Shown here: in pieces, positions 11,412 through 15,881 of the stretch
How positions within the stretch are numbered: position 1 is the first letter of the stretch
Layout of the letters: each line of letters starts with the position of its first letter
Assembly (NCBI GenBank): GCA_038065395.1
Contig: JBBTRB010000007.1
Span: forward strand, 1-45,564
Direction of reading: 5' to 3'
Length of the DNA: 45,564 bases
Source: Patescibacteria group bacterium
GTDB lineage: Bacteria > Patescibacteriota > Minisyncoccia > Phycocordibacterales > PALSA-1337
Notes under the pieces: generated by a model
Seen by the model: only the letters and a program-made list of their open reading frames with translations
What the model was told of the DNA's origin: nothing
The model's database searches: none
Program-made: the position numbers and the translations under genes

Positions 11412-12352
11412 AGCATTTTTTCTATACAGTTTTCGGGGGCATATTCGCTATCACTACGGGGATAGGGGTTGCCTATGGAGGTGCCTGGGCATGGAACCAG
11501 GGGATGCCTTATCTTGCGAGTGTGGTGACATCGGCTCTTGCGGCGGACGACGGTGAGACTCTGGTAGATGGTCTGCGGCGTACGGTGCGGTTCTCTGCTC
11601 ATGAAGAAGAAGACGACAGTACCATATCGTCAGTGGCACTCCATGCGCCTGATGAGAGTATTACTGCACGTGGATATATCGTCATGGACCTGTCTACCAA
11701 CACGATCGTCTCTGAGAAGAATAGCAACACGTTGATGCCGATCGCTTCAGTCACCAAGCTCGTCACGGCGATCGTTGCCCGTCGACACATGAGTGGTAAC
11801 CAGCGCATCACCATGACCGACAGGATCATCGCCACCTACGGCAACACGGCAGGATTCGAAAAAGGTGAGACGATGCTCGCCGATGATCTCCTCTACCCGC
11901 TCCTCATGGTTTCATCCAATGATGCCGCCGAAGCATTCGCAGGGGAATATGGCAGGAAGAATTTTCTCCGAGAGATGAACTCTGTTGCCCAAGAGATCGG
12001 CGCCTATCGAACATATTTTGCAGATCCGTCTGGACTGTCACCATCCAATGTCTCTACGCCTTCTGATCTGGCACTGATCATCGACTGGATCCGCAAGAAC
12101 GACCCGCGCATCATCGAGCTCACTAGTCTCAAAAGCAAAACTGTCCGTGCACATACCTGGACGAACCCAACACATTTTTTGAGTTGGTCGCAATATATCG
12201 GTGGCAAGAACGGTTACATCCCCGAAGCAGGACGCACGGCCGTGTCGCTCTTCGACATGGGACCAGACAGGAAGATCTACGCGATCGTAGTGCTCGGTAG
12301 TGCTTCGCGAGATACTGACATGCTCAAACTCATCGGTAAGATCGACGAGTGA
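11408..12352 (+). CDS. D-alanyl-D-alanine carboxypeptidase (peptidase S11)
   Basis: SVTK (SxxK), SSN (SxN), DPSGL, KNG in the KTG position. Confidence 0.88.
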   Translation: MKHFFYTVFGGIFAITTGIGVAYGGAWAWNQGMPYLASVVTSALAADDGETLVDGLRRTVRFSAHEEEDDSTISSVALHAPDESITARGYIVMDLSTNTIVSEKNSNTLMPIASVTKLVTAIVARRHMSGNQRITMTDRIIATYGNTAGFEKGETMLADDLLYPLLMVSSNDAAEAFAGEYGRKNFLREMNSVAQEIGAYRTYFADPSGLSPSNVSTPSDLALIIDWIRKNDPRIIELTSLKSKTVRAHTWTNPTHFLSWSQYIGGKNGYIPEAGRTAVSLFDMGPDRKIYAIVVLGSASRDTDMLKLIGKIDE

Positions 12353-12390
12353 TCTGTACAGAACAGACTTTTTGTTGTAGTCTAGCGTCT

Positions 12391-13545
12391 ATGTCAAAGG
12401 GTATGAATAAGAAGGGTACGTCGAAAAATTTCTGGACTTCATTGCCCAGACCTTTTTTCGTACTGGCTCCGATGGCCAATGTTACCGATGCAGCCTTCCG
12501 TAGTGTCATAGCGAAATACGGCAAACCTGACGTGACCTGGACAGAGTTCGTCTCGGCAGATGGCCTCATGTCAGCTGGTCGCGACAAACTCTTGGTTGAT
12601 CTGCGATTCACCAAAGCAGAACGTCCGATCGTGGCACAGCTTTTCACCGGGCATCCAGAGGCGATGCGTGGCGCGGCGTCACTGGTTGCTGAGCTTGGCT
12701 TCGATGGACTCGATATCAACATGGGTTGTCCTGATCGAGCAGTTGAGAAGCAAGGAGGTGGAGCGGGTATGATCAAGACTCCAGAGATGGCAGTGGCGGT
12801 TATCCGTGCGGCGCAGGAGGGAGTAAGACAGGGGCAAGGGAAAAAGGTAACAGGTAAAAAGAAAAAAGAACAAGGGGAAGCGCAGGGAATTCCAGTGACG
12901 GTGAAGACGAGGATTGGATATAACAAGGTCGACATGAAGTGGCTGGAAATGTTGATCTTGTTGAAGTTGCCTGCGTTGACTGTGCATCTGCGTACACGCA
13001 AAGAGATGTCAGATGTACCCGCACACTGGGAACTCATGCCCGAGATCGTGGCATTGCGCGACCGCCTGCAAGCGGATATTCCAGCAGAAGGGAGGACACT
13101 GATCATCGGTAACGGTGATGTGATGTCTGTTGAAGAGGCGCGAGTCAAAGTTGCCGCATCTGGCTGTGATGGCGTGATGATCGGAAGGGGGATCTTTGGT
13201 ACGCCGTGGTTGTTTCGAGACGTTGTCATTCCCGTGAAAACGGGAATTCAGGATCATGCCACGAACAGTAATAATATTCTGGATCCCCACTTTCGTGGGG
13301 ATGACATAGTTACAGGTCTGTCAAAAATTCCCACACCACAAGAACGTCTCCGTGTTTTACTCGAGCACACACTCCTGTTCGAGAAAAAGTTCAAAGGTAT
13401 CAAAAACTTCGCCGTAATGAAAAAGCATTTCAAAGCATATGTCTCTGGTTGGGAAGGTGCCAAGGAACTCCGTGCACACCTCATGGAGACCAATAGTGCC
13501 AAAGAGGTGAAAAAGATCCTCAAGATACATCTCTTGAGTATGTAA
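12391..13545 (+). CDS. dus: tRNA-dihydrouridine synthase with two in-frame insertions
   Basis: LAPMANVTD, DINMGCP, VTVKTRIG, GNGDV, GVMIGRG. Confidence 0.93.
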   Translation: MSKGMNKKGTSKNFWTSLPRPFFVLAPMANVTDAAFRSVIAKYGKPDVTWTEFVSADGLMSAGRDKLLVDLRFTKAERPIVAQLFTGHPEAMRGAASLVAELGFDGLDINMGCPDRAVEKQGGGAGMIKTPEMAVAVIRAAQEGVRQGQGKKVTGKKKKEQGEAQGIPVTVKTRIGYNKVDMKWLEMLILLKLPALTVHLRTRKEMSDVPAHWELMPEIVALRDRLQADIPAEGRTLIIGNGDVMSVEEARVKVAASGCDGVMIGRGIFGTPWLFRDVVIPVKTGIQDHATNSNNILDPHFRGDDIVTGLSKIPTPQERLRVLLEHTLLFEKKFKGIKNFAVMKKHFKAYVSGWEGAKELRAHLMETNSAKEVKKILKIHLLSM

Positions 13546-13551
13546 ATCATT

Positions 13552-13580
13552 TTGACTTCTATACCAGAAGAATATATCCT
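13552..13580 (+). promoter_or_regulatory. Sigma70 promoter
   Basis: TTGACT-17 bp-TATCCT. Confidence 0.5.
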
Positions 13581-13586
13581 TATGTT

Positions 13587-13704
13587 TGGAAAGTGACCGA
13601 TGTCCGGTCACTAAATAACTGCGGTAAATAACCCCACAAAAATAAAAAACGCGTAACAAGTTTGACTAAGCCTACCTCTCTTCGGAGTGGTGGGTCTTTT
13701 CTTT
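13587..13704 (+). ncRNA. Candidate ~115-nt small RNA
   Basis: Promoter upstream, GTGACCG/CGGTCAC hairpin, A-rich linker, UUCG-capped terminator plus T run; no ORF. Confidence 0.4.
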
Positions 13705-13717
13705 CCACCATGAGGAT

Positions 13718-13745
13718 TTGACATGATGAGCGATGGTGCTAATCT
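13718..13745 (+). promoter_or_regulatory. Sigma70 promoter for the large structured RNA
   Basis: TTGACA-16 bp-TAATCT with extended TG. Confidence 0.55.
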
Positions 13746-13751
13746 ACTAGA

Positions 13752-14278
13752 TAGAGAAACTGGTAGGGAATCTGCATCGTGTGATGTGGGCCACTCTCTG
13801 ATAACGGTACACCTGTCCTCATTGGTGAGGAAGAAAGGAATACATGCAACCTGCAACGTTCACTGCTCGTGGCGCACCTGTCGATAAGACCTCCTCGACC
13901 TCCTGCGCATTCTCGACGGCCTATCAGGCCTGAAGCAATCGCCGGCTCAACGTTCTTTATAAACAGTGAAAAGTTTTACCTATTGTCGGAGACTTAGAAA
14001 CGCGCTTGATCCGTGGCGGTTTCTGTCGGCGTGCGGAGTCGATGAATGATAGGTGGAATGCCCGTGTCGCACCATTCCGTGGTGCACGAATGCTCTTTGT
14101 TACACGATAAAAGGGAATACTAATTCCTGGCACTGTGCAATCTGCTAATAAGCCCTGTTACAGAGCAGGTCTGTCACTCGAAATGCTGCTCGTTCTGCGG
14201 AACGAGAAACGCACGTGGTGATGCAGAATAGAGAACTTATTGTCCCGTTGCGCCTCAGTGGTGTAACGGGACTTTTTT
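13752..14278 (+). ncRNA. Candidate large structured ncRNA (~520 nt), family unknown
   Basis: Closing helix TCTGCATC/GATGCAGA, about ten internal helices, own promoter and terminator, no long + strand ORF. Confidence 0.6.
14242..14278 (+). terminator. Intrinsic terminator
   Basis: GTCCCGTTGCGCC/GGTGTAACGGGAC 13-bp stem followed by TTTTTT. Confidence 0.85.
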
Positions 14279-14293
14279 ATGTACACTAGTCTC

Positions 14294-15316
14294 ATGTCCG
14301 TACTCTATCGCACATATCGACCACAAAAATGGGCCGAAGTTATCGGTCAGGATCATATTGTCTCTGTCCTACAGAGTGCTCTAGATAACAACAAGGTCGC
14401 TCATGCATACCTCTTCTCTGGTTCACGGGGTACTGGCAAGACCACCACTGCTCGCATCTTCGCTCGAGCACTCGGCACTGCCGACGAAGACGTCTACGAG
14501 ATCGACGCCGCCTCGAACCGAGGTATCGATGACATCCGTCATCTGCGCGAACATGTCTCCGTTTCGCCTTTCTCTTCGAAATACAAAGTCTACATCATCG
14601 ACGAGGTTCACATGCTTTCCAAAGACGCCTGGAATGCACTACTGAAGACTCTCGAAGAGCCACCGGCTCATGTGATCTTCATCCTGGCTACAACCGAGCT
14701 CGACAAAGTTCCCGAGACGATCATCTCTCGTTGCCAGACCTTCACCTTCCGTCGCCCGACACGCGAGATCCTGGCCAAGCAGATAGCCACTGTCGCCAAG
14801 AAGGAGGGTTACACACTCGATGCTGGTGCCGCAGACCTGGTAGCACTCCTCGGTGACGGATCGTTCCGCGACGCCCTCGGCATATTGCAGAAGGTCATCT
14901 CTACTTCTGCTGACACCAAGATCACTCGCCCCGAAGTTGAAAAGATCACTGGTGCCCCACAGGCAAGTCTCGTCAACTCATTCGTTGCAGCCGTGATCGC
15001 CAAGAATATCGATGAGGCGCTCTCTGTGCTCACTCAAGTCCAAGAAGCCAACACCTCGATCAGTACGTTCACCATGCTCATTCTCGAGAAACTGCGCTAT
15101 ATATTGCTCACTCAACACTCTGTGTCCTCTCACGCTTCTATTCAAGGACGTGTGTCACCTGATGACTGGACTTTCATCTCTACCCAGGCAGGCAAGAAGG
15201 CTCTGACTCCCGCTACTCTCACACTCTTCCTCGAAGCCGCTGAGGCTATAGGTCGTGCAAAGATAGACGTGTTGCCGCTGGAGATGGCGGTGGTGAAGGT
15301 GGGGAGTACTATATAA
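14294..15316 (+). CDS. dnaX: DNA polymerase III subunit gamma/tau (short form)
   Basis: LYRTYRP, GSRGTGKTT, EIDAASNRG, IIDEVHML, LLKTLEEPP, TIISRCQ. Confidence 0.97.
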   Translation: MSVLYRTYRPQKWAEVIGQDHIVSVLQSALDNNKVAHAYLFSGSRGTGKTTTARIFARALGTADEDVYEIDAASNRGIDDIRHLREHVSVSPFSSKYKVYIIDEVHMLSKDAWNALLKTLEEPPAHVIFILATTELDKVPETIISRCQTFTFRRPTREILAKQIATVAKKEGYTLDAGAADLVALLGDGSFRDALGILQKVISTSADTKITRPEVEKITGAPQASLVNSFVAAVIAKNIDEALSVLTQVQEANTSISTFTMLILEKLRYILLTQHSVSSHASIQGRVSPDDWTFISTQAGKKALTPATLTLFLEAAEAIGRAKIDVLPLEMAVVKVGSTI

Positions 15317-15332
15317 TACGTAACACGCTATT

Positions 15333-15881
15333 ATGAATAAAAAACTGAAACTCCTGAGTGTACTTCTCGCGATGATCATCATTGTAGTTGTTGGAATGAT
15401 TGCATATAAGAAATCTGATTCGGATAACATGGATCCTTTGAGAGTGAAGTTTGAAGACGTAACATCCTGGAAGATGTATCAAAATAAGCAGCATGGCTTT
15501 GAATTCAAATATCCGGAAATATACAACGTCCTTTCATATGATTCGGCAACAGGTAAATATAGTTCTACAACATTAGAATCAAATGAGTTCTTCGTGACAA
15601 ACGCGACAGAGCATCAAATCAATACTATTGGCAGGGAATATAGTGGAATATGGATCACTATTTCAGACAAGAAAATAGACGAGCCTGCGAATAGTGTTTC
15701 AGAAAGTGAGATTTATGTTGGCGGAAATAAGGGTGTCAGATATGAAGTACTAAACAGTGCTTTAGATATAAAATACCCGGTTATCATCTTTGAAAATCAT
15801 CACAAGTATTTCTCGATTCTTGAATCTTCTGGTTGGCCTGTGATTGATAGCTTTGTTTCAAGTTTTAAGTTTACTAACTAA
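15333..15881 (+). CDS. AT-rich membrane-anchored hypothetical protein (PsbP-like)
   Basis: N-terminal TM, WKMYQNKQHGFEFKYP, ends SSFKF. Confidence 0.75.
   Translation: MNKKLKLLSVLLAMIIIVVVGMIAYKKSDSDNMDPLRVKFEDVTSWKMYQNKQHGFEFKYPEIYNVLSYDSATGKYSSTTLESNEFFVTNATEHQINTIGREYSGIWITISDKKIDEPANSVSESEIYVGGNKGVRYEVLNSALDIKYPVIIFENHHKYFSILESSGWPVIDSFVSSFKFTN

Follow-up and report, generated by a model that had tools for sequence, protein, structure and literature searches.

Introduction

In Bacillus and the Firmicutes, the gene encoding the SRP RNA (ffs/scr) lies upstream of dnaX. Because of this arrangement, the SRP RNA is the natural suspect for an ORF-free unit located directly upstream of dnaX. 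More generally, long GC-rich spacers are used as a signature for finding structured RNAs, as set out in the cited part of PMC8632094, and the cited part of PMC8250186 describes single-sequence folds of random sequence that look just as ornate. In the cited section of Nelson and Stegen (2015; PMC4508563), ffh and ffs are given as undetected in any Parcubacteria genome.

Here, we describe the spacer between dus and dnaX in a Patescibacteria genome (671 kb in 8 contigs, 94.7% complete; G000), located in a 45,564-nt stretch of DNA that was analysed as a whole and is referred to as the window. A first-pass annotation had proposed that the spacer encodes a highly structured, multi-domain large non-coding RNA, possibly a new class or a highly diverged known one. 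The reading we favour, at roughly even odds (about 50%), is that of a unit of about 0.58 kb, running from promoter to terminator, which is young and specific to its lineage and lies in a dus-dnaX junction that is hypervariable. The unit is most likely non-coding, or at most encodes a tiny peptide, and is without a demonstrable conserved fold or function.

Results

Layout of the dus-dnaX Spacer

The spacer is flanked on the + strand by dus, encoding a tRNA dihydrouridine synthase (12349-13545; Pfam PF01207 (Dus), E 2.4e-51), and by dnaX (14294-15316; Pfam DNA_pol3_delta2 and others), with the alignments of the relatives starting at the ATG at 14294. From the end of dus at 13545 to this ATG, the spacer measures 748 nt, and no + strand ORF within it exceeds 54 aa. 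Directly 3' of dnaX, a 182-aa ORF (window 15333-15881) has a GC content of ~0.35, far under that of its neighbours, and no Pfam domain.

Two + strand hairpins precede the unit. An 8-bp hairpin without a T-run lies just 3' of dus (13592-13612; -13 kcal/mol, z -3.67), followed at 13671-13706 by a hairpin that resembles a terminator and has a U-rich tail (CCUACC.CUC-UUCG-GAG.GGUGGG; -16 kcal/mol, z -2.68, with 3 of 200 shuffles as good). The latter is missing from the list of the consensus scanner and is the probable end of the dus transcript.

The promoter and strong terminator reported in the first-pass annotation, enclosing a stretch without a long + strand ORF, were both confirmed. The promoter (13718-13745, + strand) is of the sigma-70 type, with a -35 TTGACA, a 16-nt spacer and an extended -10 TGcTAATCT. 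Sites of the form TTGACA-N16-18-TANNNT number two in the 45.5-kb window, against 1.17 expected, and this is one of them; it also resembles the TTGTCA-17-TATAAT ahead of the RNase P RNA gene of the same genome. It was left unlisted by the consensus scanner because its -10 matches at only 3/6 positions. The intrinsic terminator (14242-14278, + strand) comprises a 13-bp stem, a loop of 5 and TTTTTT (-25 kcal/mol, z -7.16 for the stem at 14242-14272 plus the T-run). From the positions of these signals, a + strand transcript of ~525 nt is predicted (13752-14278), with no coding signal and a core fold z of -0.87. The core is about 490 nt long with a GC content of ~0.50, which equals that of the genes and the RNase P and tmRNA loci and exceeds the 0.29-0.40 of ordinary spacers.

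Several smaller + strand elements were recognised within the unit. A small hairpin in the fold, CCUCA-UUGG-UGAGG (13817-13830), stands 5' of an A/G-rich tract and has a counterpart in the related species G041, CCUCUC-GCU-GAGAGG, at the matching place. A two-tier hairpin with the 10-nt loop UAAGACCUCC follows (13872-13908; -12.5 kcal/mol, z -2.13, equalled by 8 of 200 shuffles), and the 3' region (14103-14227) shows modest local structure in the form of three hairpins, seen in this genome only (z -2.42, 1 of 200 shuffles as good). The second copy of CCUCCU in the unit lies at 13899-13904. An anti-Shine-Dalgarno small RNA was considered on account of the two CCUCCU motifs, one of them in a hairpin loop, and was rejected, as the genome has no Shine-Dalgarno enrichment. 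An antisense regulator of dnaX was likewise rejected; when 13820-13912 was paired with the dnaX mRNA of the same genome, 68 of 100 shuffles gave a duplex of equal strength.

Between the terminator and dnaX, a -10-like TACACT (14282-14287, + strand) lies 6 nt 5' of the ATG. The first-pass annotation had assigned dnaX its own -10 box after the terminator, in agreement with a box kept 6-7 nt 5' of the dnaX ATG in four related genomes (TACACT in G000 and G041, TAAACT in G102, TATGCT in G052). At many gene starts genome-wide, a TATAAT-like box stands 6-8 nt 5' of the ATG in an ...ACC-ATG context, and there was no Shine-Dalgarno enrichment at 411 long-ORF starts or at 189 operon-internal starts. The box ahead of dnaX fits both observations, which suggests that leaderless mRNAs may be widespread in this genome, dnaX included.

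Comparison with Known RNA Families

Rfam 15 returned two tRNAs and nothing else for the whole window at the gathering threshold. The Rfam check advocated in the first-pass annotation gave no family match in the region 13550-14320 even at E <= 10 (0 matches, including introns, riboswitches, OLE, GOLLD, ROOL, HEARO and raiA). The absence of intact tmRNA, RNase P and SRP hallmarks noted there was also borne out: the models were blank in the region, and the genes for the RNase P RNA (RF00010; C6:63095-63462, 82.5 bits, E 4.8e-26, under the 100-bit cut-off) and the tmRNA (RF00023; C2:34475-34842, 118.5 bits) are located elsewhere. ARAGORN identified no tmRNA in the window, and 6S RNA (RF00013) had no match in the region or the genome.

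The SRP RNA models RF00169 and RF01854 had no match in 13550-14320 at E <= 10 and none in the genome, and RF00169 was found in 0/41 genomes (G000 and 40 relatives). The Ffh M domain (PF02978) was found in 0/41 of the same genomes and in 0/201 (G000 and 200 of the phylum); no SRP54-type GTPase (PF00448) was above the cut-off in the genome or in 21 genomes (G000 and 20 relatives). The ffh and ftsY NCBIfam models TIGR00959 and TIGR00064 had no match in the genome, and a six-frame scan revealed no protein combining the GTPase boxes. Ffh, FtsY and SRP RNA are absent from G000, in agreement with the loss described for Parcubacteria in the cited section of PMC4508563. As to the proposal of a new class or a highly diverged known one, no Rfam family matched; the core shows no excess folding, and the unit is not a diverged RNase P, tmRNA, SRP or 6S RNA.

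Folding Compared with Shuffled Sequences

Every helix named in the first-pass annotation is present in its place; that these helices exceed chance was not upheld by comparison with dinucleotide shuffles. With the terminator included, the unit had a z of -2.64 on the + strand and -2.02 on the - strand. Without it, the 487-nt core (13752-14238) had a z of -0.87 on the + strand (22 of 100 shuffles folded equally well) and -0.99 on the - strand (20 of 100), and shuffled sequence of like composition yields similar helices. In the same genome, the positive controls reached -7.59 (RNase P RNA) and -3.71 (tmRNA). The folding check that the first-pass annotation itself had suggested thus placed the core no better than its shuffles, and a highly structured multi-domain large RNA found no support.

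In 120-nt sliding windows, z was near 0 across 13690-14050 on both strands, and only 14050-14229 on the + strand fell to between -2.0 and -2.6. The last ~140 nt (14100-14240) had a z of -2.42, and the 3' region reached -2.6 on the + strand versus -1.05 on the - strand. The 8-bp helix that had been held to close the structure does not occur in the + strand minimum-energy fold. A preference for the + strand had also been claimed; the energy advantage of the + over the - strand was equalled by shuffles and therefore reflects composition. As modelled, robust structure in this RNA is limited to a few local hairpins and the terminator. The unit shows that a spacer may be long, rich in GC and full of helices visible by eye and yet fail when compared with shuffles.

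Conservation and the dus-dnaX Junction

BLAST of 13700-14290 gave no homologue in 40 relatives, and the unit was found in 0/92 congeneric species, with only two matches of 24-29 nt. The same search with the genome's tmRNA was positive in 83/92 congeners and is therefore able to detect conserved RNAs at such divergence. No homologue was found among 400 genomes of the same order (four chance-type matches of 24-38 nt) or 400 of the same phylum (one 32-nt match). The short genus and order matches were rejected as homologues, as they are located in unrelated genes (rpsD, gyrB and a radical-SAM-like ORF). The unit was not found in phage and plasmid collections, and exact 21-mer scans of genome and viral contig collections had no match. 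The homology check across relatives and phages that had been put forward to support the structured RNA thus yielded no alignable set. In a metagenome scan with DnaX, from which records near this genome may have been withheld, the best match among the 80 loci listed had 70% identity, and therefore no close strain was found; the closest species by tmRNA identity were G041 (91%), G102 (86%) and G052 (79%).

A second orphan spacer in the same genome (C3:39260-39941, locus L133) was tried as a paralogue of the unit and rejected, as the two are not similar. This spacer comprises 682 nt, is ORF-free with a GC content of 0.496 and several GC-rich hairpins, and has no coding signal and no Rfam match at E <= 0.1.

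The junction was surveyed in 39 congeners with dus upstream of dnaX among the loci listed; 9/92 had no DnaX match. The gap was <= 143 nt in 24/39, with several pairs overlapping by a few bases, and 191-1234 nt in the remaining 15. The gaps of eight relatives had no blastn or tblastx match to that of G000 or to each other. Unrelated-looking promoter/terminator units occupy the site in these 15/39 congeners; the inserts are heterogeneous, and several finish with a terminator just 5' of dnaX. In G041, G102 and G052, the gaps measure 370, 541 and 548 nt and differ in sequence from that of G000, with a mean column identity of 46% in the four-way alignment. In this lineage, the junction between dus and dnaX is a hot spot of turnover.

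Individual inserts varied in character. In the 808-nt insert of G013 (L024), positions ~360-480 of the gap form a long palindrome that is nearly perfect and looks MITE-like (z about -11 on either strand in a 120-nt window). The 853-nt gap of G029 (L036, of another family) is comprised of three successive mini-units, each ending in a GC-rich terminator and two starting with TTGACA-16-TATACT/TATAAT promoters; these may be small-RNA genes. In G011 (L019), the 640-nt gap holds an insert with a GC content of 0.52, consistently negative + strand folding z (to -5.0) and a terminator at dnaX, and this insert was present in none of the 92 other genus genomes.

Coding Potential and Translated Similarity

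Codon-usage log-odds, trained on 191 long ORFs, were positive for dus and dnaX and negative for all six frames of 13550-14290. Pfam and PHROGs at E <= 0.1 gave no match for 11 stop-free frames of 36-81 aa. A HMMER search of 1.84 billion representatives with a 77-aa minus-strand frame gave a single match, to a tandem-repeat ORF of 52 residues; BLASTP did not align the two, and the match was rejected as spurious; a word-index search with a 70-aa plus-strand frame returned nothing. A decayed protein gene had been named as the outcome that would count against an RNA, and neither tblastx against 30 relatives' loci nor tblastn with Dus and DnaX gave anything significant. Recurrent weak tblastx matches to the 3' ends of relatives' dus were considered as a decayed dus copy and rejected, as tblastn with Dus failed to recover them (best E 1.2). 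Blastn and tblastn of the unit against dnaX gave nothing significant, and a direct duplication of the dnaX 5' end was discarded, the score of the collinear repeats D1, D2 and D4 being equalled by 42 of 500 shuffles. Neither terminal inverted repeats nor a second genomic copy of the unit was found.

A block at 13834-13882 (+ strand; AAAGGAATACAT ... CGTGGCGCACCTGTC) is weakly shared with the sister species G102. The shared block spans 57 nt (AAAGGAATACAT...CGTGGSGCRCCTGTC), with a local score reached by 2 of 300 shuffles; the local alignments of G000 with G041 (51 of 300) and of G041 with G102 (46 of 300) were not significant. The start of a putative 29-codon ORF (13844-13933, + strand; MQPATFTARGAPV...), whose frame has codon log-odds of -30.8 and -20.3, lies inside this block. 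Frames of 20 codons in G102 and 37 codons in G041 occupy the matching place, and over 13 residues the N-termini of the three peptides can be aligned gap-free, as M-x3-T-x3-[RH][GP][AP][PA]V. The promoter-to-motif distance is 118 vs. 116 nt when G041 is compared with G000.

The 22-mer coding for RGAPV is similar to the antisense strand at the conserved ITGAPRA site in relatives' dnaX. The genus DnaX profile scored about 0 bits on the shared block, and a second dnaX look-alike (HAYLFSG site) was confined to G015 and not collinear, with G000's own dnaX unmatched. The resemblance to an inverted scrap of dnaX was treated as probably coincidental. Opposite ITGAPRA, the antisense strand of relatives' dnaX (e.g., L013, L016, L021 and L164) holds open M..LT..ARGAPV..STS frames of 18-198 codons; these frames follow from conservation of the sense strand and could be misleading when small ORFs are sought.

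Discussion

The signals at this locus suggest a simple course of events. RNA polymerase would start near 13752 from the TTGACA and extended -10 and would stop at 14242-14278, giving a ~525-nt non-coding RNA whose fold is neither stable overall nor conserved. Between them, the insert and the terminator-like hairpin 3' of dus would separate dnaX from the transcription of dus, two genes that abut or overlap in many congeners, and a leaderless-type promoter of its own (TACACT, 6 nt 5' of the ATG) would then serve dnaX. From sequence, we infer that the unit is transcribed from this start point and that its RNA has little or no conserved function. As for a stand-alone orphan transcript, the unit carries sequence signals for its own promoter and a Rho-independent terminator and shows no protein-coding potential, with a 29-codon ORF possible. 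The self-contained non-coding RNA unit of the first-pass annotation is therefore plausible as a non-coding transcription unit, given its promoter, its terminator and the lack of a coding signal, and not as a large structured RNA.

A young orphan unit, to which we give about a 50% probability, is favoured by the promoter and terminator signals, by the absence of a coding signal and of any protein family in any frame, by a core that folds at z -0.87/-0.99 where the genome's RNase P RNA and tmRNA reach -7.59/-3.71, by the BLAST result of 0/92 congeners against 83/92 for the tmRNA, and by a variable site at which the three closest species have a different sequence. Several points argue against it: the core has a gene-like GC content, above that of ordinary spacers; a 671-kb genome is expected to shed DNA that serves no purpose; G102 weakly shares a 57-nt block; the similar promoter-to-motif distance in G041 hints at some constraint; and the + strand has mild structure in its 3' 140 nt.

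The same genome-specific occurrence, at a site where 15/39 congeners hold unrelated inserts, could also be explained by a non-functional remnant, i.e., decayed foreign or rearranged scrap such as a dead gene or a mobile-element relic, with incidental or leftover promoter- and terminator-like sites. The gene-like GC, the lack of excess folding and the ~120-nt palindrome (z -10.9) in the insert of one congener are consistent with such an origin, which we consider unlikely while giving it some weight. There was, however, no translated similarity (Pfam and PHROGs on 11 frames, HMMER, word index, tblastx, tblastn), no terminal inverted repeat and no second copy in the genome, and it is improbable that chance set a strong terminator 520 nt downstream of a perfect -35 and its extended -10. 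The shared block raises the further question of a small-protein gene, in which the unit would be the mRNA for a 29-residue peptide (13844-13933) with counterparts of 20 residues in G102 and 37 in G041, and the rest would be untranslated. An ATG that in both G000 and G041 comes after an A/G-rich tract and is similarly spaced from the promoter, the gap-free 13-residue N-terminal alignment of the three peptides, six identical post-start residues between G000 and G102 (T, R, G, A, P, V) with three synonymous third-position changes, and the single occurrence of the N-terminal pattern in the genome's six-frame translation all point in this direction. The reading is nonetheless doubtful. The codon log-odds of the frame are negative (-30.8 and -20.3), the lengths of 20, 29 and 37 residues go with unrelated C-terminal parts, the G000-G041 and G041-G102 alignments are not significant, and the pattern was derived post hoc from the same three sequences and so does not test the reading independently. 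Moreover, the same motif arises by accident antisense to the conserved ITGAPRA site of dnaX in many relatives, and the A/G-rich tract carries little weight because the genome has no Shine-Dalgarno enrichment. It is similarly doubtful that the junction in this clade is home to a family of short, strongly promoted transcripts that evolves fast but keeps its position, and of which the unit is an expanded member with a shared 5' module and 3' turnover. That module would consist of the promoter, about 115 nt, the A/G-rich tract and a short frame that starts with M-x3-T-x3-RGAPV.

The first-pass view of a new class of large, multi-domain structured RNA draws on the length and GC-richness of the spacer, on the promoter and terminator that it carries within a reduced genome, on a 3' region with a z of about -2.4, and on the lack of an Rfam family match, so that the RNA would be new. 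We regard it as very unlikely. The core z of -0.87 and the values near 0 across 13690-14050 contrast with -7.59 and -3.71 for the controls, the unit is absent from 92 congeners while the tmRNA is detectable in 83, sister species differ in both sequence and length at the site, and random sequence folds equally ornately in the account cited from PMC8250186. Were that view correct, a genome of 671 kb would have retained a structured RNA of ~500 nt, and this RNA would rank as a strong candidate for a new ribozyme or ribonucleoprotein; the evidence goes the opposite way. Little more can be said for a cis-acting leader or attenuator, in which dnaX would be read from the 13718 promoter with the terminator as a regulated switch. 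The terminator does end 16 nt 5' of the dnaX ATG, and the inserts of several relatives also close with a terminator before dnaX. This arrangement is highly improbable, however, given that no antiterminator is evident (upstream pairing to the terminator arms was equalled in 206 and 21 of 300 shuffles), that four related genomes conserve a -10-like box 6-7 nt 5' of the dnaX ATG, that 24/39 congeners are without such a leader and that no riboswitch or leader family matched. A diverged SRP RNA (ffs/scr) is suggested by position and by nothing else, and we attach almost no credence to it: RF00169 and RF01854 are blank, there is no Ffh or FtsY, and Parcubacteria are reported without ffh and ffs in the cited section of PMC4508563. 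The evidence points to an ordinary orphan, and the junction would illustrate how dnaX may be uncoupled from dus and placed on its own leaderless-type promoter.

Set beside known systems, the unit shares with the SRP RNA (RF00169, RF01854) a GC-rich, ORF-free position directly upstream of dnaX; it differs in matching neither model, in belonging to a genome and lineage without Ffh/FtsY, and in being ~5x longer than the 97-position small SRP model. The large ornate Rfam RNAs (OLE, GOLLD, ROOL, HEARO and raiA) are likewise stand-alone and of ~500 nt, whereas the unit has no Rfam match at E <= 10, no excess folding energy and no conservation. The RNase P RNA and tmRNA of the genome, both housekeeping RNAs, are similar to the unit in GC and size, but are located elsewhere and fold far better than their shuffles, and the tmRNA is conserved genus-wide. 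A further comparison is with lineage-specific orphan small-RNA or short-transcript genes in variable junctions. At a predicted ~525 nt the unit is long for a small RNA and has no nameable target, seed or Hfq-type features; like these genes, it has its own sigma-70 promoter and an intrinsic terminator, no coding signal and no family, is restricted to one or a few sister species, and is sited where relatives differ.
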